Position numbers and translations under genes: made by a program
DNA from: a bacterium
GTDB taxonomy: Bacteria > Patescibacteriota > Saccharimonadia > CAILAD01 > BJGX01
NCBI GenBank assembly: GCA_029778565.1
Contig: JAKOQC010000187.1
Location: forward strand, 2,615 to 66,614
Direction of reading: 5' to 3'
Length of the DNA: 64,000 nucleotides
Notes under the pieces: generated by a model
The model's database searches: none
Told to the model about the DNA's origin: nothing
The model's input: only the letters and a program-made list of their open reading frames with translations
Shown here: in pieces, positions 20,311-41,167 of the stretch
How positions within the stretch are numbered: the stretch's first letter is position 1
Layout: every line of letters begins with the position of its first letter

Positions 20311-20319
20311 TTAAGAAGA

Positions 20320-20348
20320 TTGTAAGCATATCCGAAATGTGATATTAT
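20320..20348 (+). promoter_or_regulatory. sigma70-like promoter TTGTAA-N17-TATTAT upstream of the tRNA-like gene
   Basis: Hexamers and 17-nt spacer read directly. The hexamers end about 35 nt before the tRNA 5' end. Confidence 0.4.
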
Positions 20349-20383
20349 GGTTCCAATCTTGTGGTATCTGGCGTCTCATTGGG

Positions 20384-20459: not shown

Positions 20460-20485
20460 GGGGCCGCCCAGACTCACGAGGTAGC

Positions 20486-20512
20486 AAACAGCCGCGAAAG
20501 CGGCTGTTTTGC
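20486..20512 (+). terminator. terminator hairpin AAACAGCCGC-gaaa-GCGGCTGTTT plus T-run
   Basis: Read directly. Paralogous to the hairpin after tRNA-Trp. Confidence 0.55.
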
Positions 20513-20621
20513 ATATAAAAGTATAATTGCTATAAAATTATGTCTACCAATCAGATTGGCCTATTGTTAAGGTTCTATGTGTGCCTTATAATCTACATAT
20601 AACAAATTTAATTTTTATCCA

Positions 20622-21269: not shown

Positions 21270-21868
21270 CATCAAAGTATTGTCCAAAGTGTGGTGCTAA
21301 ACTTGCACCTGGTGCAAAGTTTTGTGCTAAATGTGGGCATCCAGTTAAGCAAGAGGAAACAAACGTCGTAAAAAAAGAGCCAGAAGACACCAAGTCAGTT
21401 GCTAGTTCCACGGATAGTACCCAGAATAAGTATGAAGGTGTAAATGGCTGGCTGTTGTTATATACAATTGGTCTAGTAGCAGGCATTGGATTCAGTATCT
21501 TTAACTTTATATCTTATGTTGCATTGGCATTAAAGTTTGACGTAAATGCTGAGGGTGCGAGTGTCGTTATTGGAATATACCTTATACTTGGTTTTGGTTT
21601 CGCAATTTTGCTTGCTATCCAAAGCATTGCACTAGTTCAAATTATCCGTAGGAAGAAGTCAGCTAAGATTTTTGTAGTAATATCATTGGTTTACGGTTTT
21701 CTATTATATCTTGCTGATGCTGGGATTGCGGGCTGGGCGTACGAGCTTGCAAAAGAGACCGCTCCATCTGACCTTTATGGTGGTGCGGGAAGAGCATTTT
21801 TCGCTTTAGCTATTTGGCTACCTTACTTCTTGGTTTCGAAACGAGTTAAACAAACCCTAGTAAAATGA
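21266..21868 (+). CDS. zinc-ribbon-domain membrane protein
   Basis: 200 aa. N-terminal CPKCG...CAKCG followed by 4 to 5 TM helices. Confidence 0.55.
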   Translation: MTSKYCPKCGAKLAPGAKFCAKCGHPVKQEETNVVKKEPEDTKSVASSTDSTQNKYEGVNGWLLLYTIGLVAGIGFSIFNFISYVALALKFDVNAEGASVVIGIYLILGFGFAILLAIQSIALVQIIRRKKSAKIFVVISLVYGFLLYLADAGIAGWAYELAKETAPSDLYGGAGRAFFALAIWLPYFLVSKRVKQTLVK

Positions 21869-22479
21869 AAAAATGTGGTCACTGTGGGGCAGAAAACCCC
21901 GATTCTGCCAAATTCTGCAAGAAATGTGGCGAGTCTCTGGATGATGCTGTAGAGGGTGAGATTGTTGATGCCCCAAAAGCAATAAAGAAAGAGAGCAAAG
22001 TAAAGACCATCTTTGAAGGTATAGGCGGCTTCCTGATTATGTTGGTTGTCTTTGCGGCACTAATTTTTCTAATCTTTGCATTTATAAAAGGTGCAACTTT
22101 CCTTAGTGAAAAGCTGTTGCCGATTCTAGTAAAAATAGTTATTCCACTTTTAATAATAGAGTTATGTGTTGTTTTACCTTTAGCCTTATCAAAAAAACTA
22201 AAAGGTACAGCGGGAGTAATCGTTTATATTGGCTCATATGTATATGGCTTAACAGCATGGTTAATAGGCTTTATTGTGACCTTATACTATTGGGGAGTTT
22301 TCTGGGTGATAGTCGGCCTTTTCATAGCTGGAATTGGGGTAGCGCCTTTTGGGATAGTGGCAGGAGGCCTTAATGGCCAGTGGGCAGTAGTATTTAACTT
22401 AATTGTACTAATTGTGTTAACCTACGGCTCCAGAATGCTTGGTGCGAAGCTAGCCGAAGATGCTGACGAAGGTGTATGA
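21865..22479 (+). CDS. zinc-ribbon-domain membrane protein
   Basis: 204 aa. N-terminal CGHCG...CKKCG followed by multiple TM helices. Confidence 0.55.
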   Translation: MKKCGHCGAENPDSAKFCKKCGESLDDAVEGEIVDAPKAIKKESKVKTIFEGIGGFLIMLVVFAALIFLIFAFIKGATFLSEKLLPILVKIVIPLLIIELCVVLPLALSKKLKGTAGVIVYIGSYVYGLTAWLIGFIVTLYYWGVFWVIVGLFIAGIGVAPFGIVAGGLNGQWAVVFNLIVLIVLTYGSRMLGAKLAEDADEGV

Positions 22480-22775
22480 AGAAGACAGACACAACTCTTT
22501 GGGTATCTATTGGAATAATTGCATCTGTAATTGTTATTATCTTTGTTGTCGTTATTCTAGTAATTGCGAGCAAAGGGTCAAGTACTGATTCGATAACCGA
22601 TACTTGTTCAAATCCACAAATTAAGGGCAACATTAGCAAATCTGGTGAAAAAATCTATCACAAGCCTGGTGATATGTATTACTCACAAACCGAGATAAAC
22701 GAAAGTGCTGGTGAAAAAATGTTTTGTACTGAAAAAGACGCCCAAGACGCTGGCTGGCGACATTCTAAGATTTAA
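22476..22775 (+). CDS. small membrane-anchored protein with conserved C-terminal module (GNISKSGEKIYHKPGDMYY...FCTEKDAQDAGWR)
   Basis: 99 aa: TM helix plus a 60-aa domain. From memory, the motif resembles a short module found at the C-termini of some Firmicutes secreted nucleases. This is unverified. Confidence 0.45.
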   Translation: MKKTDTTLWVSIGIIASVIVIIFVVVILVIASKGSSTDSITDTCSNPQIKGNISKSGEKIYHKPGDMYYSQTEINESAGEKMFCTEKDAQDAGWRHSKI

Positions 22776-22839
22776 GAAATAAAAACATTAGACTATTTTT
22801 TGGTATACTAATGTTAATAATACTTATCTAGGAGAGTGT

Positions 22840-23760
22840 ATGGATAAAGAAAACCATAAGTTAGAAAAGGCTGAAGATAAACAAGTAAAACTAGATGAAC
22901 AGGGGAATAAGTCTGAAGATGGAATTGATAAACTTCAAACGAAACCATGGTATAAAAAAACCTGGGTAATAATACTAGCCTTGGTATTATTTTTCCCGTT
23001 AGGCCTTTTGCTGACTTGGCTATCCGATTGGAAATTATCAATGAAAATACTCGCAACTGGTATAGTGATTGTCTTATTTTCACTACTTATTTACTCAAGC
23101 ATCACAGCAAAACCTCTTATTACAGTTAATAGTCCGAATAATGGTCAAGAAATAGAAACAGAAAGTATTGATATTACTGGTAACGTCAATCCCGCTTGGT
23201 CCAAGCTCCAAGTTAACGATATGAACGTAGAATTAAAACCCGATGGTACGTTTAGTTCCAATGTTAAATTGCAACAGGGACAAAATACAATCAAATTATC
23301 AGCAATAAACTCTGGTAAGACAACAGAGTTAACAGTAGGGGTTAAACGATTAACTGCTGCAGAAATCGCAGCTCGAAAAGTTGCTGAAACTCCAAAACAA
23401 GCAACCCCAACTCCCACAGAAAAAGAACTAAGCTACAGCGTAATCAGTGAAAATAAACGAGGAACCTTAAATCGAGTAGAGGTTTATACTACGGAAACAT
23501 CAGATGACAGATTGATTAAACTAAATGATAAACTATTAGATCAATATAAACCTGGCCTAACCATACTATATATTGATTACTTTAATGATAAAACGGTTGC
23601 AAGCGATTATTTTAGTAAGCAAAACGACCCGAATATTAGTGAAGCAGAGAAGGATCAACTCTATACACATTACATTGCTAACTTGGTCTATAATACTAAT
23701 AGTGGGTTAAAAGAATTAGTTAGACAGGGTGATAATCAGAAAGTATTGAAAACATACTAA
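22840..23760 (+). CDS. membrane-anchored hypothetical protein with Ig-like beta domain
   Basis: 306 aa. Basic N-terminus, two TM helices, then a beta-rich segment (ITVNSPNNGQEIETESIDITGNV...) and an alpha/beta C-terminal domain. Confidence 0.5.
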   Translation: MDKENHKLEKAEDKQVKLDEQGNKSEDGIDKLQTKPWYKKTWVIILALVLFFPLGLLLTWLSDWKLSMKILATGIVIVLFSLLIYSSITAKPLITVNSPNNGQEIETESIDITGNVNPAWSKLQVNDMNVELKPDGTFSSNVKLQQGQNTIKLSAINSGKTTELTVGVKRLTAAEIAARKVAETPKQATPTPTEKELSYSVISENKRGTLNRVEVYTTETSDDRLIKLNDKLLDQYKPGLTILYIDYFNDKTVASDYFSKQNDPNISEAEKDQLYTHYIANLVYNTNSGLKELVRQGDNQKVLKTY

Positions 23761-23849
23761 GCCAGTACTTGTGGCTTTGTTAGTATAATTGCGTTTCTAA
23801 CTTCTTCTATAGTGCCCTGCCAAAGTACTAAAGTACTTATGCTTAAATC

Positions 23850-24356
23850 ATGAAAAATAATACAACGGTTAAATGCCCAAGTTGCGGGAAAGAAGTAATT
23901 GGCCTCGAGCGTGAGGTTCGTACTGTATATCCAGACGATGCTGCAGAGATTATCAAAGATGACCCAGACAGCAAAAAGATTGAAACGTGGGGCCCAGATT
24001 TTATACGTCTCGGCAAACAACGCTACTTTGTACGCGTTATGTTACCAGTAAAATTAGATGTTGGTCATGAGTTTAGGTTTGGCGTTTGGATGGAGGTTGG
24101 TCAAGAGACAATTACTGATTTAAAAAAGGTCTGGAATAGCTCTGAATATGTAAAGGTTAGCTTTGAAGGAATACTTGCAAACGCTGTTCCCCCATGGGGA
24201 GATACAATCCTTGGTGCTGAATGTAAGGCAGAAGTTCGTGATGCTAAAAGTGTACCCTTTATTAAATCTTCTAATAATTTAGAGCTTTCAGAAATACTAA
24301 GCAAGCCTACGTCAGTTCATGAAATAGAAACAGTTATAGCGGATGTTTGGAAATAA
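23850..24356 (+). CDS. DUF2199-like protein (N-terminal CPSCG zinc knuckle)
   Basis: 168 aa. The pattern VKCPSCGKE...RFGVWMEV recalls the DUF2199 family. Assigned from memory. Confidence 0.45.
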   Translation: MKNNTTVKCPSCGKEVIGLEREVRTVYPDDAAEIIKDDPDSKKIETWGPDFIRLGKQRYFVRVMLPVKLDVGHEFRFGVWMEVGQETITDLKKVWNSSEYVKVSFEGILANAVPPWGDTILGAECKAEVRDAKSVPFIKSSNNLELSEILSKPTSVHEIETVIADVWK

Positions 24357-24505
24357 TTCCTAAACTGTTAAAATACATATAGTAGTCCTAATATTGTCCA
24401 AAACGCCGTTCCAAGATAAAACCAGCATATGCCTGGTTTTTTATTACTTTTATGGCAATAAATTGCAAACAAAAATATGTTAAGATATAAGTTAATATAA
24501 GCTTT

Positions 24506-25564
24506 ATGAAACAAAAGAAGAATACAGATAGTTCTACAATAACTAGGTTATGTATTGTAATAAGTTGTTTTGTGTTGGCAGCTGTAAGCTTTTCGGTTTG
24601 GTACCAGCGCAATACTCAATTGGCAACATATAATTTAGTACAGTCAAAAATTAGTGAGCTCGAGGCACTACAAAAAGAAAACGAATTACAAACTGTTGAT
24701 ACACAAAAGCTACATCAGCAAGCAGAAACTGCCAAACAACAGATAAATAAGTTTGATTTTATTGCATCGTATCGAAATCTAGAACAATTAAAAAGCCTAA
24801 CCACTACCGATCAAGCTTTGCTTGATGAGGCAATATATAAACGCCAGGCCGAAGAGGCTGCACAGGCAGCCCTGGCCAAAAAAAGAGAAAGTGCGGTTGC
24901 TGCCAGCGGTAGCACCAATCAGCCGGGAACATTTGTACTGCCAATAGTTATGTATCATAAGCCACCAGCTAATTTTGCCGAACAAATGGAGGTGCTTAAG
25001 AATAAAGGCTATACAACGGTCCATATGAATGATGTAGCCAGTTTTATTGCTGGTCGAGCAAAACTACCACCAAAAGCTGCGGTTATTACATTTGATGATG
25101 GCTTTGCGGTGCAAAAAGATGTGATGGGTATATTACAAAAGAACAATCAAAAGGCTACACTTTATCTTATTGAAGGGGGTGGCATGAGCCATTATTGTAT
25201 TGGTCTTTTACGCAAAAACACTGCCTGTGGTGATGCTTATCTGTCTGTTCAGGATGTAAAGAATATGTTGAGTTCTAACTTGATCGAAATTGGTGACCAC
25301 ACCGTCGACCATCCCAACATGGCAGCGTTATCTCAGGCTGATCAACAGTTTCAGATAATAACCAACAAAGCTTTTTTAGAACAGACATTTGGGGTGCCAA
25401 TTACCACCTTTGCTTATCCATATGGTAATTATAATGGCACAACTGTTCGCTTACTGAAACAAGATGGGTTTTTGACAGCAGTAACAACCCAACCCGGTGT
25501 AGTACAAAGCTTTGATGAGCCATTATTGTTACGAAGAATACGTTCGACACTAGAGCTTCCCTAG
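24506..25564 (+). CDS. polysaccharide deacetylase (NodB homology domain) with N-terminal TM and coiled coil
   Basis: TFDDG, HTVDHP and FAYPYG motifs. Confidence 0.75.
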   Translation: MKQKKNTDSSTITRLCIVISCFVLAAVSFSVWYQRNTQLATYNLVQSKISELEALQKENELQTVDTQKLHQQAETAKQQINKFDFIASYRNLEQLKSLTTTDQALLDEAIYKRQAEEAAQAALAKKRESAVAASGSTNQPGTFVLPIVMYHKPPANFAEQMEVLKNKGYTTVHMNDVASFIAGRAKLPPKAAVITFDDGFAVQKDVMGILQKNNQKATLYLIEGGGMSHYCIGLLRKNTACGDAYLSVQDVKNMLSSNLIEIGDHTVDHPNMAALSQADQQFQIITNKAFLEQTFGVPITTFAYPYGNYNGTTVRLLKQDGFLTAVTTQPGVVQSFDEPLLLRRIRSTLELP

Positions 25565-25606
25565 ACAAGCGGTTAACCAACTTTCCCTTATGATATAATT
25601 ATACTT

Positions 25607-26284
25607 ATGCTTAAGACAGAGGGCCTGAAAAAGATTTATCATATGGGCGAGGTTATTGTACCGGCGCTGAATAATGTCTTTTTAGAGGTAGAAGATGGTG
25701 AAATGCTTTGTATTATGGGTAAATCTGGTTCTGGCAAGAGTACTTTGCTCCATATGCTTGGGCTGATTGATTCACCTACTAAGGGAAAGGTACTTTTTAA
25801 AGACCAAGATGTTAGTAAATTGTCTGAGTCTCGACGGTCTAAGATTCGTTTAAGTCAGATGGGCTTTGTGTTTCAGGAATATGCCTTGTTACCAGAGCTA
25901 ACAGCTGTAGAAAATGTGTATTTGCCAGCTAAAATGTTAGGTCGTTGGCCAAGTGAGTATCAAGACAGAGCCGCAACCTTGCTCGAATCGCTAGGTCTGC
26001 TCGATAGAATGCACCATCGCCCTCGTGAGCTTTCGGGCGGACAGCAGCAACGCGTGGCGATTGCTCGAGCAATGGTAAACAAACCCGAAATAATCTTTGC
26101 TGACGAACCAACTGCAAACTTAGATACAGCATCGGGTAAACAAGTAATGGATGCTCTGCGTTGGCTTAATGAGCAATTTGGTACTACAATCGTGTTTGTT
26201 TCTCACGATGCCGAAGATAAACTTTATGCCAAACGTGTTATTTATCTCTATGACGGCAAACTTTCAGAAGAGGAAGAAGATTAG
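25607..26284 (+). CDS. ABC transporter ATP-binding protein (MacB/LolD-type)
   Basis: Walker A GKSGSGKST, signature LSGGQQQRVAIARA, Walker B FADEPTANLD. Confidence 0.9.
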   Translation: MLKTEGLKKIYHMGEVIVPALNNVFLEVEDGEMLCIMGKSGSGKSTLLHMLGLIDSPTKGKVLFKDQDVSKLSESRRSKIRLSQMGFVFQEYALLPELTAVENVYLPAKMLGRWPSEYQDRAATLLESLGLLDRMHHRPRELSGGQQQRVAIARAMVNKPEIIFADEPTANLDTASGKQVMDALRWLNEQFGTTIVFVSHDAEDKLYAKRVIYLYDGKLSEEEED

Positions 26285-27516: not shown

Positions 27517-28119
27517 ATGCAAGAAAGCCAAGCCAATAACAAATCTTCTCAAAATCGATATTTTGTCGAGCTTATTGCTCGCGCACAAGACGGCGATGAA
27601 GATGCTTTTGAGGAGCTCTATAATGAATATTTTACTCGGCTATATCGATATGTTTTGATACGAGTTGGTAGTGACGACGAAGCAGACGATATTACCCAGT
27701 TGGTGTTTCTAAAGTTTTACAAAAATCTTACCAATTGGCGCGACCAGGGCTATGATCCTTCGGCATACCTCTACACCATAGCAAGGAGTGTAATTGCAGA
27801 CTATTTTCGCTCGAAAGCACGTAAGGGCAAGAAAGTAGAAAGTTCTGATGCGGTTTTGGAAATTATTGCTGATCCGTCACAAAATTTACAGGCCGGCGTT
27901 ATATCTAATGAAGAGAAGGCGAATTTATATACAGCCCTTCAGCAACTTCCCGAAAACTATCAAGAAGCATTGCTTTTGCGCTACATGGAAAATCTATCAA
28001 GCAAAGAAATAGCACAAATAATTGGCAAAAGTGATGTAGCTACGCGAAAATTGCTCAGTCGTGCTGTAGCAGCATTAACAGAAATAATGCAATTACAAAG
28101 CAAGGAAAATGAAGTATGA
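27517..28119 (+). CDS. ECF-type sigma-70 factor
   Basis: Region 2 (FEELYNEYFTRLYRYV) and region 4 HTH (LSSKEIAQIIGKSDVATRKLLSRA). Confidence 0.8.
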   Translation: MQESQANNKSSQNRYFVELIARAQDGDEDAFEELYNEYFTRLYRYVLIRVGSDDEADDITQLVFLKFYKNLTNWRDQGYDPSAYLYTIARSVIADYFRSKARKGKKVESSDAVLEIIADPSQNLQAGVISNEEKANLYTALQQLPENYQEALLLRYMENLSSKEIAQIIGKSDVATRKLLSRAVAALTEIMQLQSKENEV

Positions 28120-28592
28120 AGTCAACACAAGAAGATAGGGCCGAACAAAACGCACAACAATTGCGAGAGTTTTCTCGTATCTCGCCCAATAAGCGCTCTC
28201 TATTGCGAGATATTGTTAACTCAGCCCCAAGTAATATTAGTCGAGATAACCGACTAGACAATTATTTTGCCGCCGAAAATGAGCAACCTCAAACGACTGG
28301 TTTAGCCAAACGACCATTGTTTCGAGCGTATGCCGGTATAGCAGTAGCTCTGGTGTTGGTTGTTGGCGGTAGTATAGTTTGGTTTGGTCGACAAAGCAGA
28401 ACTTCAGACACACAAAATCAGTCATCACAAGTTGCGGCAAATGGTAAGGTAGCCAATGCTATTAATGCAATTACTCAGCAGGCACAAACAGAATTACAAA
28501 CGGCTCAAACTGCAACTATAGACACTGCAAATTTGGATGCAGTTAATACACAGCTTGGGCAAATGCAGGAGGCAGTAAATGAAAAATTTTAG
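28116..28592 (+). CDS. putative anti-sigma factor (single-pass membrane protein)
   Basis: Coupled by a 4-nt overlap to the ECF sigma. Cytoplasmic N-terminus, one TM helix, Q/T-rich ectodomain. Confidence 0.4.
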   Translation: MKSTQEDRAEQNAQQLREFSRISPNKRSLLRDIVNSAPSNISRDNRLDNYFAAENEQPQTTGLAKRPLFRAYAGIAVALVLVVGGSIVWFGRQSRTSDTQNQSSQVAANGKVANAINAITQQAQTELQTAQTATIDTANLDAVNTQLGQMQEAVNEKF

Positions 28593-30028: not shown

Positions 30029-31348
30029 ATGAAACCCCAAAATAATTCAATACTGCGAATTTATGGCATATTTATTGCTGTATCGATAATTTGTTTTGGG
30101 GGAATAATTGCAGGATTTGTATTTCAGAGCCAAGTAATTTTTTGGCTGTCATTATTGTTTTTCGCAACACTGGGGATTGTGCGCATACTTATTATTATTC
30201 ATTCCTTACAATTAGCCAACAAAAACCAAGAGCAGCGTAACAATAACCTCAGTAAAGAACAGGCACAGCTACAAGCTCTTATAAATAGTCTAGGAGAGGC
30301 AATCTTAGCGGTTAATACAAGTGGCGAGGTTACGTTGTTTAACGCTGCAGCACTAGAACTGATTGACTCGCACACAGAGCTTATAGGTAAAAAAATCAAT
30401 TCGGTTTTTCCCCTAATTGATAGTAAAAACCAGCCAGCGGATGTACTCGATTCGGTAATGACAGCAGGCAAAATTAGTGTACGTGATGATTTACGTGTGG
30501 TGCTACCCAAGGCAGATCCAATCGAAGTGTATACCATGGTTACACCAATTAATCAGTCTGGTGAGATAGTTGGGGCAATTATTCTGGCGCGCGATGTTTC
30601 GCAACAAAAGTCATTACAAGCCCAAAAAGACGAATTCTTAAGCGTGGTTAGCCACGAATTACGCACACCAGTAGCGATAGTTGAGGCTGATTTGTCTACA
30701 GTACTTTTACCGGGGTATGCCGATTTACCAGAAAAAGCGAAAAAACTCCTTCATTCTGCAGCTCAGAATATTACGTATCTTTCGGGGCTGTTACAAGATA
30801 TTTCCGATCTTTCTCATGCGGAGCGACATATGTTGGATGTTGAATTACAAACTGTTGACATCCAAAAACTTGCCAAAGAGTTAGCTGATGATTTTTCTAC
30901 TCGCGCTCAAAAAGCCAAGCTCGAATTTAAACTTGATATTGATCCAAATACACCATCAATCGTTAGTTCGACGCAGAGAATTACTGAGATTATTGTTAAC
31001 TTTTTGACCAATGCTATTAAGTATAGTAGCGGAGTTGGAAAAACAGTTACATTACATGTAGGGCCATCTAACCAACTCCCGGGTGGAGTGGTTGTTGAAG
31101 TGAAAGATGAGGGTTTGGGTATTTCAGAGGCTGATCAAGCCAAATTATTTACCAAATTCTTTCGATCTAGCAGTGACGCCGTACAGGCAATAAAAGGTAC
31201 CGGTATGGGGCTATATATTACCACTCAGCAGGCGAAAAAAATTGGTGGAGAAATACACCTAGAAAGTCAGCTAGGAAAAGGAAGTACGTTTTACCTCGTA
31301 TTACCAAGCAAGGTACCGGCTAACCTCATTAGTAGGACGATGAGTTAA
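30029..31348 (+). CDS. sensor histidine kinase (2 TM, PAS, HisKA, HATPase_c)
   Basis: H-box VSHELRTPV. G-boxes KDEGLGIS and GTGMGLYI. Confidence 0.8.
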   Translation: MKPQNNSILRIYGIFIAVSIICFGGIIAGFVFQSQVIFWLSLLFFATLGIVRILIIIHSLQLANKNQEQRNNNLSKEQAQLQALINSLGEAILAVNTSGEVTLFNAAALELIDSHTELIGKKINSVFPLIDSKNQPADVLDSVMTAGKISVRDDLRVVLPKADPIEVYTMVTPINQSGEIVGAIILARDVSQQKSLQAQKDEFLSVVSHELRTPVAIVEADLSTVLLPGYADLPEKAKKLLHSAAQNITYLSGLLQDISDLSHAERHMLDVELQTVDIQKLAKELADDFSTRAQKAKLEFKLDIDPNTPSIVSSTQRITEIIVNFLTNAIKYSSGVGKTVTLHVGPSNQLPGGVVVEVKDEGLGISEADQAKLFTKFFRSSSDAVQAIKGTGMGLYITTQQAKKIGGEIHLESQLGKGSTFYLVLPSKVPANLISRTMS

Positions 31349-33360
31349 AATGCCTCGGTTCTATTTTGCCAACGTGGTTTTAAGAGTTCATACTCTATCA
31401 TAGAACCAAAAAGTAGTAATAACTCTATGGTGCAGCCCAGCGGAAACAGGAGAGTAGAGACAATGCTCTGCCGAGAAGAGATCGTAATAATTAATCGATT
31501 AATATAACTTAATAAAACTGCAGCCGCTAGAATAAATACACCCTCATACATACCAAATATTAAGAGTATAACAAGCAGCAGGGTGGGTAATACAAATGCA
31601 ATAAAGCCGCCCAAAAGCAAACACACCGTAAGTGGCATAGAAAAATGTAGAGCTGGGTAAAATCGGCGAAGATTACCACTGACAATCAAACGACTACTGG
31701 CATGATTCTGACTCGTAGCTACATCAGACCCAAGATAAAAACCGGTATCGAGTTTTTTCATTTTAGCTGCCGCAGCTAGATCAAAATCTTCTAAAGGACT
31801 CTTGCGAACTAGAGAGAATCCTCCCATGGCTTCAATGCTCGAGCGTAAAAAAGCTACCAAGCTCGAGCTAGCATTGGCGACTTTCGGATGGGTACGGGCA
31901 AGTAGGGCAGAAGGATATGCTCCAAGCATAAAGAAATGATTTTGACTAAGGATAAGTTGTTGGCCAAGACTCTTGTTTTGATCTGCCGGCAAGACCGAAA
32001 CCAAACTTTTCTTTTGTTCATTAATAAGTCCTACCAAAATAGAGAGAGCTTTTGGTAGAAGTACAGTATCTGCAGAAATTAAGACTATTACTTCACCACT
32101 AGCCTTTTCTAGTAACGCCTCGGCAGCCCAAGAGTGGATTGTCCAGCCTGGCTTGCGAGGTGGAATATCAATAATTTGCAAACGGGGGTCTTGAAATCCT
32201 TCAAGTATTTTTGCGGTATTATCACTCGAGCCAAGATCGGCCATAATAATTTCAAAGTTAGGATAATCTTGTCCTACTGCTGCAAGCAAAGTAGAAGATA
32301 TATTATCTGCTTGGTTGTAGGTGTAGGCAAGAATAGATACCATGGGGAGTTCGCTGTGCGGTTTGGTTTTTGGCCGGCGGAATTTTACTAAATTATATAT
32401 AGTAAGAACTAATTGGAGTATAAACAAACAGAGCAAAAAGCCACCAAAAAGAGTTATATATTTATCACTCACATTAAAGGGGTCATAGACATATAAGAGT
32501 AGTTGAGATAAAAAGAATCCAACCAAAATATTAAGCCACATAAAATTCTTCCACGCTCTCCGAAATTGCATACTGTGGGCATCAGATCGGAACTTATAAA
32601 AAAAGCTCATATTTAGTGCATAGAGCGAGAGAAAGATAGCGGCAACAAGGCCATAAGGGAAATATGCAATAGCTACAATAAGACAGGTTAGAACGTAGAG
32701 CCAAAAGCTGTAACGGGTTGTTCTTTTAGCACCCATTACCGTGGCAATTGAGGCAATATTGGCAGCTCTATCTGGCTTGATATCTTGAATAGAACCCATC
32801 GCTTGCGATGCCATACCCCATAACATAAAGGCTATAATTGCTGGCCAATACATATTGGTTGTATTACCATACAGCAATCCAAAGATGAGCGGGCTTACAA
32901 AATGCAAAGCAGAGTTAATAGAATCTAAAAACGGAATTTCTTTAAACCTGAATGGTTTGGCAGAGTAGGTAAAACAAAAAAGAACAGTTAAGCCCAACAT
33001 TATTCTGGCGACGTTGCTGCTTGAATACAGCAAGTAACCAAGAAATGGAATATTCGCTGCAGCTATTACCAGCCACAGGGCTTGATGTTTTTTCTTATCA
33101 ACCAGACCTCCTTCGACAGAATTTTTCCGTGGATTTTTAATATCCGATTCGTAGTCATATATATCATTGATACCATAGAGTAGTAAATTGTAAGCAAACA
33201 AAAAATAGAGTGTGCCAAGAATAAATTCAAGATTGATAGTTCTGGCCGCCAGTAAATATCCAACCGCAAATGGTGCAGCAGTATTTATCCAGCTAACCGG
33301 ACGACTGGTAGCAAAAATCTCACGTATGGTAAGCTGAGAGTTATTTTTTTCGCTCTTCAT
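31345..33360 (-). CDS. fusion protein: UbiA-family prenyltransferase (lycopene elongase CrtEb-like) plus family-2 glycosyltransferase (CrtX-like) plus C-terminal TM helices
   Basis: N-terminal 290 aa carries NDIYDYESD (NDxxDxxxD) and DIKPD, with about 8 TM helices. Residues 340-560 show GT2 motifs (VSILAYTYNQ...EIIMADLGSSDNT). It is last in the crtYe-crtYf-crtEb order. Confidence 0.6.
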   Translation of the reverse strand: MKSEKNNSQLTIREIFATSRPVSWINTAAPFAVGYLLAARTINLEFILGTLYFLFAYNLLLYGINDIYDYESDIKNPRKNSVEGGLVDKKKHQALWLVIAAANIPFLGYLLYSSSNVARIMLGLTVLFCFTYSAKPFRFKEIPFLDSINSALHFVSPLIFGLLYGNTTNMYWPAIIAFMLWGMASQAMGSIQDIKPDRAANIASIATVMGAKRTTRYSFWLYVLTCLIVAIAYFPYGLVAAIFLSLYALNMSFFYKFRSDAHSMQFRRAWKNFMWLNILVGFFLSQLLLYVYDPFNVSDKYITLFGGFLLCLFILQLVLTIYNLVKFRRPKTKPHSELPMVSILAYTYNQADNISSTLLAAVGQDYPNFEIIMADLGSSDNTAKILEGFQDPRLQIIDIPPRKPGWTIHSWAAEALLEKASGEVIVLISADTVLLPKALSILVGLINEQKKSLVSVLPADQNKSLGQQLILSQNHFFMLGAYPSALLARTHPKVANASSSLVAFLRSSIEAMGGFSLVRKSPLEDFDLAAAAKMKKLDTGFYLGSDVATSQNHASSRLIVSGNLRRFYPALHFSMPLTVCLLLGGFIAFVLPTLLLVILLIFGMYEGVFILAAAVLLSYINRLIITISSRQSIVSTLLFPLGCTIELLLLFGSMIEYELLKPRWQNRTEAF

Positions 33361-33646
33361 TTTGTATAAATCTTTCCAGTAAGGCCGGGCCTAGTAAAAC
33401 AACGACCAACAAATAGCCAAAGTCTTCGATTGGTATCGAGCCAATTCGAATGCCCAAAACCAAGTTCTTATTATACTCTACAATTGGTAATGCAGTCAGG
33501 TAAGTATCGAAAATCAGCATTGCGATTGTTAGTATCAGCACTAATAACAACAAAACATTTCGCTTGGGTAGTTGAAGTTTTAGCAATAAAAAAAGTGATA
33601 CAGAAAAGAGTAGAAGAATAATAATAAGACTACTATATTTAAACAT
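33341..33646 (-). CDS. lycopene cyclase-domain protein (heterodimeric CrtYf/CrtYd-like subunit)
   Basis: 101 aa, three TM helices, and the PxE(D/E) motif IPIEDFGY. Confidence 0.55.
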   Translation of the reverse strand: MFKYSSLIIILLLFSVSLFLLLKLQLPKRNVLLLLVLILTIAMLIFDTYLTALPIVEYNKNLVLGIRIGSIPIEDFGYLLVVVLLGPALLERFIQNEERKK

Positions 33647-33974
33647 TACTACCTTTCTGCTGTAGGCTTATCAAGCGATAAACTATTAAGGTTACATAAC
33701 TTAATAAGAAAAGGAAAACCAGCTCTTCTATTGGTAGGTTTGGCGAGATAATATGTAACCCAGTTACATAGCGTTGATTGGTGAAAAAAATGTCCAGTTT
33801 TATACCGGCTATGTCGGCCAAAAGGAGAATAGTAATGAGAATAAGAATGGTTTTTATGGCAGCTTTGGCGTGATAAAAGAATACAAGTTTGTATTTGGCA
33901 TCAGCGAAAAATAATCCACATACCCCGACTAACAAAAAGACAAGATAAAACCAATGTCTAGAGACAATATTCAT
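33639..33974 (-). CDS. lycopene cyclase-domain protein (heterodimeric CrtYe/CrtYc-like subunit)
   Basis: 111 aa, three TM helices, and the motif LPIEELVFLFL. Confidence 0.55.
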   Translation of the reverse strand: MNIVSRHWFYLVFLLVGVCGLFFADAKYKLVFFYHAKAAIKTILILITILLLADIAGIKLDIFFTNQRYVTGLHIISPNLPIEELVFLFLLSYVTLIVYRLISLQQKGSNV

Positions 33975-34028: not shown

Positions 34029-35516
34029 ATGAAAAAATCGGTTGCTATTATAGGTGGAGGTATAGGTGGGCTGTGCACTGCTGCACGCCTGCTTAAGAAC
34101 GGCTATGAGGTTACTATTTATGAAAAAGAAGACAAGGTGGGTGGCCGAGCCCATAGAATAGAAAAAGATGGTTACATCTTTGATACTGGACCGACACTGT
34201 TAATGATGACAGATGTACTTTACGATACCTTTGCCTATTGTGGCAAAAATTTTGATGACTATATTACACTGCTACAGCTCGAGCCGAATTACCGCGTAGC
34301 GTTTGGAGATAAAAGTACAATAACTGTCAGTAGTAATTTACCAAAATTTCAGGCAGAACTTGCTAAGTTTGATCCAAAAGCACCAGAACAATTTTTGCGC
34401 TTTTTTTCTGATATAGCCGAAATGTATCGAATTTCACGTGCTGACTTTATCGATAAAAATTTTAATTATATAACCGACTTTCTCAATCTTCGCTCGGGTA
34501 CTCAGCTCTTACGAAAACGTGGTTTATCAAAACTCTACCCATTCGTTTCGCGCTATTTTACCGATGAGCGTTTGCGACAATTATTTAGTTTTCAGAGCAT
34601 GTATCTTGGCGTGAGTCCATATGAGGCACCAGCAATTTATTCAATAGTGAGCTATATGGAAACCGGCCTGGGCATTTGGTACCCGAAAGGCGGTATGTAC
34701 TCGCTTAGTCTAGCATTACAAAAGCTAGTAAAAGATTTGGGAGGCAAGATAGAACTTACATCGCCAGTGAAACAGGTATGTATAGAAAACAAACGAGCGG
34801 TTGGTGTAGAACTAGAGACAGGTAAAATACAAAAAACCGATATTGTAATAGCCAATGCCGATCTGATTTATGCGTATAAAAATCTTATTCCTGCTAGCGC
34901 ACGTAAAAAAATGCCAGATACTCGTCTGGATAACTACAAACAAGCTAGTTCGGCGCTATTGTTCTACTGGGGTGTAGATGATGAATGCAAGGATATGTTG
35001 CATCATAATGTTTATCTGTGCAAAGATTTCAAGGCTAATCTAGAGGAAATTCTAACACAAAAGGTATTACCCAAAAACCCATCTTTTTATACATATATAC
35101 CAACCAAGACCGACCCCAGTCTGGCGCCAAAAGGCAAACAAGTATTTTATGTTTTAGTACCTGTACCTAATTTAGAGAGTAATGTTAATTGGGAAAAAGG
35201 GATCGCTAGAATTCGTAAACAAGTGTTGGCGCGTTTAAAGAGCGAATTTAACCTTGATATTGCAAATAAAATTACCACCGAAACCATCTTTACCCCCGAA
35301 GATTTTGCCCAGAAATTTAATCTCAGTAATGGTTCGGCGTTTGGATTGAGCCACCATTTCTTTCAATCGGGTGCTTTTCGCCCTCTTAACTTTAGTAAAG
35401 AGATAGCCGATATGTACTTTGTGGGTGCCAGTACATACCCCGGAGGCGGCATTCCAATGGTTACACTTAGCGCTAAGCTTGTAACAGAAAGAATTCTAAG
35501 CGATAATGGTCATTAA
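34029..35516 (+). CDS. crtI: phytoene desaturase
   Basis: FAD dinucleotide fold VAIIGGGIGGLCTAARL and CrtI-family length and pattern. Divergent from the crtY operon. Confidence 0.85.
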   Translation: MKKSVAIIGGGIGGLCTAARLLKNGYEVTIYEKEDKVGGRAHRIEKDGYIFDTGPTLLMMTDVLYDTFAYCGKNFDDYITLLQLEPNYRVAFGDKSTITVSSNLPKFQAELAKFDPKAPEQFLRFFSDIAEMYRISRADFIDKNFNYITDFLNLRSGTQLLRKRGLSKLYPFVSRYFTDERLRQLFSFQSMYLGVSPYEAPAIYSIVSYMETGLGIWYPKGGMYSLSLALQKLVKDLGGKIELTSPVKQVCIENKRAVGVELETGKIQKTDIVIANADLIYAYKNLIPASARKKMPDTRLDNYKQASSALLFYWGVDDECKDMLHHNVYLCKDFKANLEEILTQKVLPKNPSFYTYIPTKTDPSLAPKGKQVFYVLVPVPNLESNVNWEKGIARIRKQVLARLKSEFNLDIANKITTETIFTPEDFAQKFNLSNGSAFGLSHHFFQSGAFRPLNFSKEIADMYFVGASTYPGGGIPMVTLSAKLVTERILSDNGH

Positions 35517-35522: not shown

Positions 35523-36599
35523 ATGGTAGATAAAAACTTAGTTGAGTTTATTGGCTATGTAAAAGACGAGACAGACAAACGTCTGGAGGAGATTTTTAAT
35601 ACTAAAATAGCTCGTGCTGCCGAGTTAGACAGTGAATATAAAAAATTATTGATCGAAACAAAAAAGCAAGTTTTACGTGGTGGTAAACGCTTACGGCCAG
35701 CCCTGGCTGTACTGGGCTACAAAATTGCCGGTGGCAAAAAAGTAGAGACCATGATTGATGCTGCTGTTGCCCTCGAGATTTTTCATAACTATTTGTTAAT
35801 ACATGACGATTTTATGGATAGAGATGACAGACGTCATGGTGGCCCCAATATTACCGGTGTATATAAGAAAAAACTCCAAAAAGTTGTTCAGCCGAGTAAC
35901 TTACAGCACATTGCTGACAGCCAAGCAATTCTAGCTGGTGATATTTGTTGCGGACTTAGTTATGAGGTTATAACCCAGACAGATTTTGACGCAGAGAGTA
36001 AGTTGCGTGCGGTTGATCGATTAAACCAGGCAGTTTTTGAAGTAGCCGCCGGCCAACAGCTCGATATTTTGGCAAGCTTTATGCAAAAAGTTTCAATGCG
36101 TCATATTCTTAAAATTAACTATTACAAAACAGCTGGCTATTCAGTAATAATGCCATTACAGTTTGGGGCAATTATGGCAGGTAATGGTAGTAAACTCCAT
36201 CCAATTATTGAAGAATATGGAGAGGGAGTAGGGATTGGGTATCAATTAGTTGATGACGTTATTGGAATGTTTGGGAGTGAAAGAGTAATAGGTAAGCCGG
36301 TAATTTCTGATTTGCGTGAAGGCAAACAAACATTGTTGTATTTTTATGGCATGGCACTCAGTGACGATACGCAAAAAGCATTTCTAGAAAAGTCTTTCCG
36401 TAACCCGAATGCGAATATGGCTATGCTAAAACAGGTTCGCGCTATTTTAGAAGATAATGGTGCTAAGGCTAAGACGCTTTTGCTAGCCAAATCTAAAGCC
36501 GATGAGGCCACGAAAATAGCACCCAAACTAACTAGCAATCCAGAGCTACAAAAGCTTCTTATCTCGTTTGCTAATTATTGTGTCGAGCGAAATTATTGA
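35523..36599 (+). CDS. crtE: polyprenyl (geranylgeranyl) diphosphate synthase
   Basis: First DDxxD (IHDDFMDRDD) and second (LVDDVIG) aspartate-rich motifs. Confidence 0.85.
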   Translation: MVDKNLVEFIGYVKDETDKRLEEIFNTKIARAAELDSEYKKLLIETKKQVLRGGKRLRPALAVLGYKIAGGKKVETMIDAAVALEIFHNYLLIHDDFMDRDDRRHGGPNITGVYKKKLQKVVQPSNLQHIADSQAILAGDICCGLSYEVITQTDFDAESKLRAVDRLNQAVFEVAAGQQLDILASFMQKVSMRHILKINYYKTAGYSVIMPLQFGAIMAGNGSKLHPIIEEYGEGVGIGYQLVDDVIGMFGSERVIGKPVISDLREGKQTLLYFYGMALSDDTQKAFLEKSFRNPNANMAMLKQVRAILEDNGAKAKTLLLAKSKADEATKIAPKLTSNPELQKLLISFANYCVERNY

Positions 36600-36600
36600 T

Positions 36601-37440
36601 ATGGACAACCAAAAAGTTTACAACCAGCTAGCCTATCAGACCAGCGGGCGAGTTACGGCTGCGTATTCTACATCGTTTTCTCTGGCTATAACCTTGGTAG
36701 ACAAATCTATGAGAGCGCATATTTATGCAGTATATGGCCTCGTTCGGCTGGCTGATGAAATAGTCGATAGTTTTCGTCCTCACGATGCACGACAATTACT
36801 CGAAAAACTTGAGCATGAATTATATGCTGCCTTAGATAGCGGGTATAGTACTAATCTCCTTATTCATTCATTTGCGAAGACTGCCAAAGCTTATCACTTC
36901 GAGCTTGGTCTCATTCGAGCATTTTTTGCAAGTATGCGTATGGATCTTACCAAAACAGAGTATACCCAAAAAGAATACCAAGACTATATTTATGGATCGG
37001 CCGAGGTAATTGGGCTTATGTGTCTGCATATTTTTACTGATAATGATAGTAAGCTGTATTCCAAGCTTCAACCATCTGCGCGGGCACTAGGTTCAGCATT
37101 TCAAAAAATTAATTTTTTGCGAGACATGGCTGCCGATCATAATCAGCTAGGGCGAATGTATTTTCCTGGAGTTAACTTTAAAACTATGAGCAATACTGAC
37201 AAACGAGCAATAGTTAGCGACATATCGCGAGATATTCAAAAAGCCAGACGTGGCTTGATAGGTTTGCCAAAAACAAGTCGCTATGGAGTATTGTTGGCGC
37301 TCTATTACTATGAAGCCTTAATAAAGAAGCTCGAGAGCAATTCAATAGAAATTATTAAGGCTAAACGCCTTCGCATAGCAAGTCTACACAAGCTTTGGCT
37401 ATATTCTTTAGTTCGGATACAAAAAGTCTTTAATATCTAA
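36601..37440 (+). CDS. crtB: phytoene synthase
   Basis: Squalene/phytoene synthase motifs YAVYGLVRLADEIVD and RDMAADHNQLGRMYFP. ATG at 36601 preferred over the overlapping 36568. Confidence 0.8.
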   Translation: MDNQKVYNQLAYQTSGRVTAAYSTSFSLAITLVDKSMRAHIYAVYGLVRLADEIVDSFRPHDARQLLEKLEHELYAALDSGYSTNLLIHSFAKTAKAYHFELGLIRAFFASMRMDLTKTEYTQKEYQDYIYGSAEVIGLMCLHIFTDNDSKLYSKLQPSARALGSAFQKINFLRDMAADHNQLGRMYFPGVNFKTMSNTDKRAIVSDISRDIQKARRGLIGLPKTSRYGVLLALYYYEALIKKLESNSIEIIKAKRLRIASLHKLWLYSLVRIQKVFNI

Positions 37441-37461: not shown

Positions 37462-38808
37462 ATGAAAACCCCTCATTCTGATGAAGAAATAATTGTGGAC
37501 GGTATTCGTTATAATGTTGCTAACGGTAAGGTAATAGAAGATCAGAATGTGCGTCAACAGGGGCGTGGTCTAGACAGTATACACAAGCAACAGGTTAGTG
37601 TTTCGTCTGCTAGACAAAATGGGCCAGTTAGGCTTACTGATAGAGCTGCAATTATTGATTTGCCACAACGTAGACGCAAAAAAACACAGCGAGCTAAAAA
37701 GGCTATCTCCGTAGATGCGACCGGGCCAAGTTATGCTAATTACTTTGTCAGCGCACTTTTGCCTCGTAGTTTTTCGTCAGCAGCTTGGATATTTAGTGTG
37801 TTACGGGGAATATCTAGTCCGCTCGCCTGGTTACTAATTGCATTACCAATTTTTATCTTACAGACCCAAAATCTTGTTAATGAAAACATCAATCAACTCC
37901 TAGACCGCACTCATCAATTAACCCAAAATGGGGTGGTTTTTCATGCAACCGGGGCCATTATTTTTGCAGTGGTAGTATCGGCCGTTATTCTATTTGTTCG
38001 TGTTGTTTGTAATGCAATCGCACTCCATTTACGTATTACAACGCTTTCTGGTAAGCCAGCACGATTATGGCCAGCCACTAAGTTAGTTTTTCATAATAGT
38101 CTCAAGATGTTATTTCATGGCAGTATACAGATCTTATTGCTCAGCCTGGTTAGTTTACTAGCACTGATAAGTATTTTCTGGGCAGTGTTTATACCACATG
38201 GTCACACACTGACTGTTTTTTCTCCATATATCGTAGGAATGATTGTTTTTGTTTGGATAGCAATACTGTGTTTGCTTCATGCTAAGCACTGGTTACAGTC
38301 TGCAATACTCAGTAGTAGTTTACAGACTAAGTCAATTCAGCAACGAAGTTGGCAAGCGGTAACAGCTTATCCACTACGAGGCGGAATTCTTGCTGCAAGT
38401 AGTGTATTATTATCTTTCGGTATTATTGTTTATGGTGTATGGGCAGCACTCAAAGCTATTAATTGGCTAAGTCGAGCTACTGTACCTTCGAATACTCGAT
38501 TTATTTTATTGATGAGTAGTATATTTATTGGGGTAGTACTGGTGGGGTATATTCAGCAAACTCTCTGGAGCGCCTACGCCAGTTGGCTAAATACGCGCTA
38601 CACTCCAAGCTTATTTGTTTTAGCGACAGAGTCAAACATTAAGAAAACTACCTGGTGGCCTATATGGGTATCAACCTATCTTTTTGTTATGTTACTTTCT
38701 CTCTTTGCGTTGGGTATATTATTTGTTTTACCCACAATTAATGTCTGGGCAGTAACACTTTCTCAGAAAATACCGACCAAGATTGAAATTCCGCGGGTGA
38801 ATAGATAA
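37462..38808 (+). CDS. hypothetical polytopic membrane protein (R/Q-rich cytoplasmic N-terminus, about 10 TM helices)
   Basis: No recognised family. Directly downstream of crtB. Confidence 0.5.
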   Translation: MKTPHSDEEIIVDGIRYNVANGKVIEDQNVRQQGRGLDSIHKQQVSVSSARQNGPVRLTDRAAIIDLPQRRRKKTQRAKKAISVDATGPSYANYFVSALLPRSFSSAAWIFSVLRGISSPLAWLLIALPIFILQTQNLVNENINQLLDRTHQLTQNGVVFHATGAIIFAVVVSAVILFVRVVCNAIALHLRITTLSGKPARLWPATKLVFHNSLKMLFHGSIQILLLSLVSLLALISIFWAVFIPHGHTLTVFSPYIVGMIVFVWIAILCLLHAKHWLQSAILSSSLQTKSIQQRSWQAVTAYPLRGGILAASSVLLSFGIIVYGVWAALKAINWLSRATVPSNTRFILLMSSIFIGVVLVGYIQQTLWSAYASWLNTRYTPSLFVLATESNIKKTTWWPIWVSTYLFVMLLSLFALGILFVLPTINVWAVTLSQKIPTKIEIPRVNR

Positions 38809-40175: not shown

Positions 40176-40246
40176 CGTGGGACCCTCCTAAAAAGGTTGG
40201 GGTTAGTACCACAAAGGAGATAGTTATGGCAGAAGCAAAAAAAGCT
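40176..40246 (+). repeat. leader repeat 2 (about 71 nt; includes SD and first 7 codons of rplA)
   Basis: CGTGGGACCCTCCTAAAAAGGTTGGGGTTAGTACCACAAAGGAGATAGTTATGGCAGAAGCAAAAAAAGC. About 85% identical to repeat 1. Confidence 0.75.
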
Positions 40247-41167
40247 AAAACCGAAGAAGTAGCTGAAAAAGCTGAAGACAAAAAAGTTATAGCAAAGTCA
40301 AAAGTTAAACCAACCGAGGTATTGGCCAAGGCTGGCAAACGCAGTAAAAAAGTGCAAGAAGCAGAAGCAGAAAAAGCAGCCAAAGAAGCAAAAAAGGCTG
40401 AAGGTAAAGTAAAAACTGCTGCCGAAGCCGAAAAACCAAAGCCAGTACAAAAACCTCACGTGGTACGGTACAGCAAGAATCAAAAAGCTGCTCGTGAGCT
40501 ATTAGAAAAAGATAAACTCTATTCTCTTAACGAAGCTGTAGAGCTATTACCAAAGCTTTCTAAAGTAAAATTTGACGCCACTGCTGAGTTGCACGCAACG
40601 CTTAACATTGACCCTAAACAAGCCGACCAAATGGTACGGGCTGCTGCTGCTCTGCCAGCAGGTACTGGTAAGACTGTACGCGTTGCCGTACTGGCCGGCG
40701 ATAAAGATTCTGCCGACGCTAAAAAAGCTGGTGCCGATATAAGCGATGCCGCTGAGCTACTCAGTGCTATTAGTAAAGGCAAATTCGACTTTGATATTTT
40801 AGTAGCCACACCAGAAAAAATGCCAGAACTTGGTCGCTATGCTAAAACTCTCGGACCAAAAGGCTTAATGCCATCACCAAAAAGCAATACAGTTACCGCC
40901 AAGCCGGCCGAAGTAATTGCCGAAATTAAAAAAGGTCGAGTAGAGCTGAAGAATGATCCGAACGGAATTGTACATGTAAGCTTTGGTAAACTAAGTTTTT
41001 CTAGCAAAGACTTGCTTGCCAATCTTAAATCTGTTTTGGCAGCCTTGCAAAATGCTCGCCCAACCGGTGTAAAAGGTGTCTATATTAAATCTCTCTTCGT
41101 TACTTCATCTATGAGTCCATCAATTAAACTTGATGTTACTGAGGCTATTAAAGAAGCCAAAAGCTAA
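40226..41167 (+). CDS. rplA: 50S ribosomal protein L1 with about 80-aa K/A/E-rich N-terminal extension
   Basis: 313 aa. The L1 core begins near ...ARELLEKDKLYSLNEAVELLPKL. The N-terminus is low-complexity (AEKAEDKKVIAKSKVKPTE...). Confidence 0.85.
   Translation: MAEAKKAKTEEVAEKAEDKKVIAKSKVKPTEVLAKAGKRSKKVQEAEAEKAAKEAKKAEGKVKTAAEAEKPKPVQKPHVVRYSKNQKAARELLEKDKLYSLNEAVELLPKLSKVKFDATAELHATLNIDPKQADQMVRAAAALPAGTGKTVRVAVLAGDKDSADAKKAGADISDAAELLSAISKGKFDFDILVATPEKMPELGRYAKTLGPKGLMPSPKSNTVTAKPAEVIAEIKKGRVELKNDPNGIVHVSFGKLSFSSKDLLANLKSVLAALQNARPTGVKGVYIKSLFVTSSMSPSIKLDVTEAIKEAKS

Follow-up and report, generated by a model that had tools for sequence, protein, structure and literature searches.

Does a single gene of this genome encode two of the tailoring activities of the C50 carotenoid pathway, or is their apparent union an accident of sequencing or assembly? 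The gene in question lies in a 64,000-nucleotide stretch of a Saccharimonadia genome (contig JAKOQC010000187.1 of assembly GCA_029778565.1), the whole of which is called the window below. A first-pass annotation, made from the letters and their open reading frames (ORFs) alone, had read it as one polypeptide in which a UbiA prenyltransferase half of the lycopene-elongase type is followed by a family GT2 glycosyltransferase half and transmembrane (TM) helices, and had left a frameshift or assembly artefact as the alternative. It had also stated that known C50 clusters keep the elongase and the glycosyltransferase apart, which agrees with the Dietzia locus and with Corynebacterium glutamicum, where the elongase crtEb (cg0717) and the glycosyltransferase crtX (cg0730) are separate genes (PMC5401885). 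We find that the fusion gene is real and widespread, and that its product probably acts at two points of C50 carotenoid biosynthesis.

A conserved elongase-glycosyltransferase fusion

The fusion gene (31345..33360, minus strand) is one unbroken frame in the ORF listing of the window, starts with ATG and encodes 671 amino acids (aa), which the ORF list, Pfam, NCBIfam, protein searches, alignment and an AlphaFold2 (AF2) model resolve into a CrtEb-type lycopene elongase, a linker TM helix and a CruC/HpnB-like membrane GT2. Pfam places UbiA at residues 29-276 (E 1.1e-23) and Glycos_transf_2 (PF00535) at residues 342-510 (E 1.2e-16), and the two-domain reading of the annotation stands. The DNA of the window has a GC content of about 40%; because a 2-kb frame stays open in such DNA and holds two independently significant domain matches, the ORF is not a product of chance.

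The annotation had proposed looking for the same fusion in related genomes, and there it turns out to be common in Patescibacteria and to extend to other phyla. A protein search covering 5.8 billion proteins, with clusters formed at 90% identity, returned about 100 clusters that contain both Pfam domains, are 640-710 aa long and range from 93% down to 32% identity, drawn from NCBI, JGI, ENA and Logan assemblies; the databases call these proteins merely 'prenyltransferase' or 'glycosyltransferase'. A scan of 185,579 species genomes gave 343 relatives, and our locus counts are taken from the best 79 of these. Among these 79, the full-length fusion is found in about 40 Saccharibacteria/Patescibacteria genomes and, at 30-36% identity, in about 25 metagenome-assembled genomes (MAGs) of Chloroflexota, Thermomicrobiales, Limnocylindrales, Dormibacterota and Actinomycetes. 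The closest public locus belongs to the Candidatus Saccharibacteria MAG STL-PAT10 and lies on a contig of 798 kb; its fusion has 93% amino-acid identity to that of the window.

An origin of the fusion in a frameshift, an overlooked stop codon or a chimeric assembly was conceivable a priori, and nothing beyond this speaks for it. On the other side, the full-length architecture recurs in about 100 protein clusters from all of these assembly sources and in about 65 independent species genomes, the residues of the interdomain junction (DPF...YN..FRRPKT) are kept across the aligned fusions, and the trees of the two halves are congruent within Saccharibacteria. Since architecture and junction are conserved across genomes and the half trees agree, we exclude the artefact, to which we give practically no chance: the fusion gene is genuine and evolutionarily conserved. 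These half trees were built by neighbour joining (NJ), with no outgroup and no bootstraps, and do not decide between one and two origins for the Saccharibacteria and the Chloroflexota/Dormibacterota fusions.

In 13 loci the cluster is the same but its elongase, of about 300 aa, is unfused (11 in Saccharibacteria or other Patescibacteria, one in a Berkelbacteria MAG and one in Labedella). A split-gene (Rosetta-stone) search found no GT2 of the fusion's family within 8 kb of these unfused elongases, even with a profile at E<1, and in the sampled loci the GT2 subfamily of the fusion was seen only joined to an elongase. In a rough NJ tree, the unfused Saccharibacteria elongases cluster with those of Dietzia and Labedella, and the fused ones form a clade of their own.

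The two halves and the helix between them

The UbiA-fold prenyltransferase half comprises residues 1-295 (32476..33360, minus strand) with nine predicted TM helices, as judged from NF009608, identity to LbtBC of Dietzia, the AfUbiA profile and the AF2 model. In the C.p.450 pathway, cyclase and elongase are fused as LbtBC, which is encoded in the C50 cluster of Dietzia sp. CQ4 (PMC6669644). Residues 8-291 score 327 bits on the NCBIfam model NF009608 ('prenyltransferase'), whose curated cutoff is 217; the Dietzia LbtBC homologue (417 bits), Labedella (464 bits), an unfused Saccharibacteria elongase (371 bits) and a Chloroflexi fusion (291 bits) exceed this cutoff as well. On related prenyltransferase models the elongase half scores below cutoff (NF010119, 149 versus 248 bits; NF009516, 144 versus 205). 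Its identity to the elongase part of LbtBC is 42% over 289 aa (E 8e-81), and the AfUbiA structure 4tq3 matches it by profile (E 2.8e-6).

Both aspartate-rich motifs that the annotation had named, NDxxDxxxD and DxxxD, are present. The first, N65-D66-x-x-D69-x-x-x-D73 (NDIYDYESD, residues 65-73; 33142..33168, minus strand), is at least 90% conserved across the fusions, and the second, D193-x-x-x-D197 (DIKPD, residues 193-197; 32770..32784, minus strand), is likewise recognised in the alignment; both sit on basic loops that are cytoplasmic by prediction. A Pfam scan of the 671-aa protein detected no PF18916 cyclase domain, which sets it apart from cyclase-elongase fusions of the LbtBC type. By these sequence comparisons the N-terminal half is a member of the CrtEb/LbtC-type lycopene elongase family, for which C5 addition is the predicted activity.

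The GT2 half contains a catalytic domain of GT-A fold at residues 341-550 (31711..32340, minus strand), recognised by PF00535, PF13641, Foldseek and profile matches to the Protein Data Bank (PDB). It is followed by an interface helix and three C-terminal TM helices that belong to the GT2 module (residues 556-660; 31381..31695, minus strand; from hydropathy, alignment and AF2), and then by a conserved KPRWQxRT tail; counted by hydrophobicity, the helices after the GT2 domain number three to four, in line with the annotation. The half has a nucleotide-binding motif D375...D380-N-T and a DxD-equivalent motif S429-A-D431-T (32065..32076, minus strand), in which D431 is invariant in 24/24 aligned fusions and in the stand-alone relatives. 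The alignment also places the GT2 'ED' motif at E524-D525 (31786..31791, minus strand), a putative catalytic base. In the Saccharibacteria clade, Ser or Gly stands in place of the first Asp of the DxD. In the DD.S.D.T motif of the half, Leu takes the place of the second Asp of the DD pair, and D375 and D380 are kept.

The best NCBIfam matches of this half are HpnB (TIGR03469), with 94 bits over model positions 34-369 of 386, and then CruG (NF045692), a carotenoid 2'-O-glycosyltransferase. An exhaustive HMMER search with the GT2 half among 1.84 billion representative proteins gave 24,152 matches at E<=0.001, only 20 of them below 1e-30. Ranked next after the fusions were stand-alone proteins 365-400 aa long, to which the GT2 half aligns over its entire length (query 10-373 to about 7-372) at 25-30% identity; all of them score best on HpnB and CruG, and two bear the IMG name chlorobactene glucosyltransferase (CruC). 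The alignment with these stand-alone relatives stays collinear all the way between the N-terminal TM helix and a W-x-x-R motif at the C-terminal end, with the ED motif retained. Foldseek with the AF2 model retrieved PcManGT, BcsA and HAS for this half; by structure and profile together, its PDB relatives are PcManGT, cellulose and hyaluronan synthases, and ceramide glucosyltransferase, the last of which aligns from the TM anchor onward. As a membrane GT2 this half is complete, with transferase activity predicted from its sequence. We file it as a divergent relative of the CruC/CruG/HpnB-like terpenoid GT2s and outside the curated equivalogs, because its scores fall under the HpnB and CruG cutoffs.

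The label 'CrtX-like' that the annotation had given to this half has to be dropped, since the half is collinear end to end with CruC/CruG/HpnB-like membrane GT2s of about 380 aa, and the crtX candidate of Dietzia is dissimilar. This candidate, a GT2 gene beside lbtBC and the probable crtX of that C50 cluster, encodes 240 aa; only 146 aa of the GT-A core align with the GT2 half, at 25% identity, and the best NCBIfam families are different ones. CrtX of Pantoea is a GT1 enzyme with a GT-B fold; the GT2 half matches GT2 families of GT-A type only (PF00535 and PF13641), together with GT2 structures. The GT2 half is an analogue, not an orthologue, of the Dietzia candidate and of Pantoea CrtX.

Some further relatives of this module may be mentioned. 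The nearest stand-alone GT2 from the word-indexed search (P0127) has B12-binding, PdaC and GntR genes as neighbours, which are uninformative on function. The same CruC/HpnB-like module also occurs elsewhere (P0160, P0174, P0195, P0217, P0136 and P0149), either in proteins of 492-525 aa with an unassigned N-terminal extension of about 120-150 aa or in proteins of more than 2000 aa with several GT2 repeats.

The two halves are joined by a hydrophobic helix at residues 298-326, which is absent from the first description of the protein. The interdomain connector (residues 298-334; 32359..32469, minus strand) consists of this tenth TM helix (TM10) and a basic patch, KFRRPKTKP, and corresponds to the native N-terminal TM anchor of the GT2 module, as indicated by hydropathy, the AF2 model, collinearity with the stand-alone relatives and the conserved YN..FRRPKT. 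An internal start at M341, giving a separate GT2, was also considered and rejected, as M341 is not conserved in the alignment and the TM anchor would be lost.

The AF2 model of the fusion was computed from an 87-sequence alignment, and its pLDDT, pTM and secondary structure were used. It has a mean pLDDT of 90.8 and a pTM of 0.88, with the linker helix 298-326 at pLDDT >90, and the high pTM suggests a fixed packing between the modelled domains. The predicted order is nine TM helices (UbiA), an outer loop (293-297), TM10 (298-326), the GT-A domain (341-550), the interface helix and three C-terminal TM helices, and the charged loops obey the positive-inside rule, as seen from the distribution of Lys and Arg together with hydropathy. 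In this modelled topology both active sites would lie on the cytoplasmic face, bridged by TM10. The UbiA fold ends outside and the GT2 module starts with an out-to-in anchor, so that a head-to-tail fusion works without any extra element, and this fit of the two topologies may explain why the fusion is found in two deep clades.

A probable role in C50 carotenoid tailoring

The carotenoid setting of the gene is borne out by its neighbours. The lycopene-cyclase-domain subunits encoded by cycB (33639..33974, minus strand; 111 aa; TIGR03462, E 7.8e-13) and cycA (33341..33646, minus strand; 101 aa; PF18916, E 1.3e-13, and TIGR03462) are the counterparts of LbtA/CrtYe and LbtB/CrtYf, respectively. 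Their genes form an operon with the fusion gene through successive stop/start overlaps, in which cycB comes first and overlaps cycA by 8 nt, and the end of cycA overlaps the start of the fusion gene, the last of the three, by 20 nt. Divergent from this cycB-cycA-fusion operon, across a 54-bp spacer, are crtI for phytoene desaturase (34029..35516, plus strand; TIGR02734, 502 bits versus a cutoff of 238), a gene for a polyprenyl (geranylgeranyl) diphosphate synthase (IDS; 35523..36599, plus strand; PF00348, E 1.7e-49) and crtB for phytoene synthase (36568..37440, plus strand; PF00494, E 2.8e-39). The synteny of the two cyclase genes and the fusion beside crtI, IDS and crtB is found in more than 50 genomes of at least three phyla.

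CycB has 34% identity to Dietzia LbtA over 89 aa (E 3e-13) and CycA has 29% identity to the N-terminal (LbtB) part of LbtBC over 79 aa (E 2e-7), and cross comparison of the two subunits with the opposite Dietzia partners gave no significant match. With CycB thus paired to LbtA and CycA to LbtB, the operon is collinear with lbtA-lbtB-lbtC and with crtYe-crtYf-crtEb. CrtEb acting jointly with CrtYe/f gives cyclic C50 carotenoids (PMC2889829).

Our assessment is that the fusion protein is probably a bifunctional integral-membrane enzyme of a C50 carotenoid pathway, predicted to elongate lycopene and to glycosylate the C50 product, with the identity of substrates and product read from homology and gene context. 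In such a pathway, geranylgeranyl diphosphate (GGPP) would be converted to phytoene and lycopene by CrtB and CrtI, and the elongase half would place C5 units at C-2 and C-2'. A CycA/CycB heterodimer would then close the end rings, as in the biosynthesis of decaprenoxanthin, sarcinaxanthin and C.p.450, and the GT2 half would move the sugar of a nucleoside diphosphate (NDP)-sugar onto a hydroxyl of the elongated carotenoid, yielding a membrane-resident C50 glycoside. The fusion would set the stoichiometry and proximity of the first and the last tailoring steps in a membrane complex, and this is its most likely benefit. In known pathways the cyclase step stands between the two fused activities, which makes co-assembly and stoichiometry a likelier advantage than direct tunnelling.

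The same bifunctional enzyme could instead serve an acyclic pathway of the bacterioruberin type, in which LyeJ-like elongation and C-1 hydration would be followed by CruC-like transfer of sugar by the GT2 half to the tertiary C-1 hydroxyl, giving bacterioruberin-like glycosides. CruC and CruG, the nearest named relatives of the GT2 half, fit this proposal, as both act on hydroxyls of acyclic psi-end groups (CruC on OH-chlorobactene). Moreover, a homologue in the MAG Baikal-deep-G192 (locus L017) has been annotated as lyeJ, and bacterioruberin synthesis proposed for Patescibacteria (PMC9948471); that report is silent, however, on cyclases and on the GT2 domain. The two cyclase subunits, tightly coupled in the operon and corresponding one to one to LbtA and LbtB of a cyclic C50 pathway, argue against the acyclic product. 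So does the elongase half itself, which passes NF009608 alongside Dietzia and Labedella and fails the related NF010119 and NF009516, and no CruF-like hydratase was detected among the scanned neighbours. We therefore consider a bacterioruberin-type pathway unlikely.

Evidence of a different kind comes from orphan fusions that have no crt neighbours (L018:7920-10013, L027:7992-10004, L030:7995-9992 and L032:7995-9992). These are exactly the loci in which the Asp motifs of the prenyltransferase are degenerate or missing, and their GT2 motifs remain. Another fusion stripped of its Asp-rich motifs (P0072) reaches only 136 bits on NF009608. Two of the orphan loci, L027 and L032, are syntenic with the window (ribosomal protein L1, NusG, a membrane protein of about 400-490 aa and the fusion, with the PAS histidine kinase in L027), and cycA, cycB, crtI, IDS and crtB are missing from the syntenic interval in both. 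In the close pair L030 and L032, the UbiA half differs by 12 aa changes over 289 codons, with a dN/dS of about 0.48, and the GT2 half by 4 over 375, with about 0.11, both from small counts. This suggests that the GT2 half retains a function once endogenous elongation is gone, and the orphans with decayed prenyltransferase motifs offer a natural experiment that parts the two functions.

Several points weigh against coupled elongation and glycosylation as the role of the fusion. The orphans are one of them, as a constrained GT2 half implies that this half is useful without endogenous elongation. The GT2 half lies far below the curated cutoffs (HpnB, 94 versus 379 bits; CruG, 52 versus 600 bits) and has diverged at motifs that are strongly conserved in its stand-alone relatives (DAD to SAD, GW.GK to GWTIH, CRMY to SQNH), so that its donor, its acceptor or even its activity could differ. 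The matter is complicated further by the cyclase that acts between the two activities in known pathways, which leaves simple substrate channelling with no obvious benefit. Finally, the evidence is that of a 64-kb window, and the supply of isopentenyl and dimethylallyl diphosphate (IPP/DMAPP) and of NDP-sugar lies outside its reach.

Some of these points would also suit a GT2 half that acts on another membrane acceptor, such as a polyprenyl phosphate, a diacylglycerol- or ceramide-like lipid or a hopanoid-like terpenoid, with the fusion serving co-regulation or anchoring. All curated cutoffs for carotenoid glycosyltransferases are missed, the PDB relatives include the polyprenyl-phosphate mannosyltransferase-like PcManGT and ceramide glucosyltransferase, and the orphans keep their constrained GT2 half after the loss of the crt genes and of the UbiA motifs. 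Against this, the sampled loci have the GT2 subfamily only as part of an elongase fusion, with no copy within 8 kb of an unfused elongase, crt clusters of at least three phyla contain the fusion, and the nearest stand-alone family is the CruC/CruG/HpnB group of terpenoid glycosyltransferases. In addition, polyprenyl-phosphate glycosylation is already covered by a separate, canonical module in the window (52564-56885, plus strand), which consists of a GtrA-like flippase, a PMT_2 enzyme of GT-C type, a 261-aa GT2 of the GtrB/DPMS type and a second PMT_2; we count its presence in favour of the carotenoid as acceptor and regard a non-carotenoid acceptor as distinctly unlikely.

It could also be argued that the GT2 half is catalytically dead and is a structural or regulatory appendage of the elongase, given that the Saccharibacteria clade has other residues at the first DxD Asp and at several family motifs, and that a few full-length fusions with intact prenyltransferase motifs (P0056, P0068, P0093 and P0096) are without the ED motif. 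However, D431 never varies, the window protein and most members have ED, conservation extends over the whole GT2 half with its nucleotide-binding D375/D380-N-T, and in the orphans purifying selection acts more strongly on this half than on the UbiA half. A dead GT2 half is very improbable on these grounds. The four fusions without ED mirror the orphan fusions, and it is possible that the glycosyltransferase half is decaying in some lineages.

A more speculative proposal, which we hold to be quite improbable, is that the UbiA half also binds carotenoids and hands those of the membrane over to the GT2 site. In the orphans (L027, L030, L032 and L018), whose own crt genes are gone, the catalytically decayed UbiA half would then be kept as a pseudo-enzyme scaffold, and the epibiont would glycosylate C50 carotenoids scavenged from its actinobacterial host. 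Such an exchange of lipids between host and symbiont, if true, would be of a new kind for the candidate phyla radiation.

The surroundings of the cluster have features of their own. A 448-aa protein with about seven TM helices (37462-38808, plus strand), encoded between crtB and nusG, has no Pfam or NCBIfam match. It is kept beside crtB in the closest Saccharibacteria clade (L001, L003, L005, L006, L008, L009, L022, L038 and L039), shares with its positional counterpart in L027 a weak N-terminal motif (IIVDGxxYNxxNG) alone, and loosely recalls, by position only, the mmpL-like gene of the C. glutamicum crt operon. A PAS-domain histidine kinase gene (30029-31348, plus strand) converges on the fusion gene, the 3' ends overlapping by 4 nt; this adjacency is kept in many loci (L001, L002, L004, L016 and L019-L021) and persists in the orphan L027. 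About 3 kb from the carotenoid genes, a 200-aa ECF-type sigma factor is followed by an overlapping 158-aa ORF with one TM helix, a possible anti-sigma factor (27517-28592, plus strand). ECF sigma factors govern light-induced carotenogenesis in some bacteria. A rhodopsin, as a link to a carotenoid antenna or retinal, was sought in the 64-kb window and none is present.

The rest of the window holds core genes (secY, nusG, L1, the L10 leader, dnaX, dnaB and cysS) and some unrelated observations. The GC content drops to 0.36-0.39 over about 14-26 kb (14000-26000), where a large serine recombinase gene (16703-18415, minus strand) abuts and overlaps an opposite-strand tRNA-Trp (16692-16768, plus strand). 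This low-GC region with its recombinase may be an integrated element, which would also carry a ferric-reductase-like membrane flavoprotein (15120-16403). The weakest of six tRNA matches (48.6 bits) is a tRNA-Ile (20381-20456, plus strand) whose anticodon, TAT (UAU), is unusual in bacteria. Three tandem proteins of about 200 aa (20622-22479, plus strand) look paralogous, each with an N-terminal zinc ribbon and one with a DUF2569 membrane domain. The ribosomal protein L1 ORFs are 313-361 aa long (window 40226-41167, plus strand; L027:4082-5065; L032:4146-5231) and the L1 domain starts only at about residue 110-130, reflecting either a conserved N-terminal extension or a first start codon that lies consistently upstream. 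A dihydrofolate reductase (DHFR) ORF beside thyA (42752-43735, minus strand; 327 aa) has its DHFR domain at residues 1-161 only, and the C-terminal 165 aa or so are without assignment.

Relation to known carotenoid systems

Both activities and the type of pathway are already known. What is new is their joining on one polypeptide, which is widespread yet previously unremarked: the characterised clusters that we checked (C. glutamicum and Dietzia) keep them separate, and we found no description of an elongase-GT2 fusion in the open-access full-text literature. The fusion suggests that C50 tailoring enzymes operate as a membrane complex, and as a natural, conserved fusion it is a compact, testable part for the engineering of glycosylated C50 carotenoids. 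Our reading would also correct the earlier bacterioruberin (lyeJ) interpretation of the same genes. The fusion, of note chiefly for its occurrence in the candidate phyla radiation, indicates that many Saccharibacteria, ultra-small episymbionts usually deemed biosynthetically minimal, retain a full carotenoid tailoring pathway.

Compared with individual systems, the elongase half shares with CrtEb and LbtC the UbiA fold, both Asp-rich motifs, NF009608 and the place after two cyclase subunits beside crtE/B/I, but CrtEb is a stand-alone protein of about 290 aa. In Dietzia a cyclase subunit precedes the elongase on the same polypeptide, and the 240-aa GT2 has a gene of its own in addition to lbtBC at that locus; in the window the cyclase subunits have their own genes, and a membrane GT2 of about 375 aa follows the elongase at its C-terminus. 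LyeJ, the haloarchaeal lycopene elongase/1,2-hydratase, likewise is a UbiA-family enzyme of C5 elongation of lycopene, but its partners are CrtD and CruF and the product is the acyclic bacterioruberin, in place of the two cyclase subunits and the fused GT2 of the window.

CruC (Chlorobaculum), CruG (the myxol 2'-O-glycosyltransferase of Synechococcus) and the hopene-associated GT2 HpnB have the same layout as the GT2 half, with an N-terminal TM helix, a GT-A domain and a C-terminal TM bundle, and share its second DxD Asp, its ED motif and its C-terminal W-x-x-R; they differ in standing alone, in being only 25-30% identical with several motifs differing, and in acting on C40 carotenoids or being linked to hopanoids. 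With the CrtX of C50 clusters and of Pantoea the common ground is the presumed role, the final glycosylation of a carotenoid hydroxyl, the Dietzia candidate being shorter (240 versus about 375 aa).

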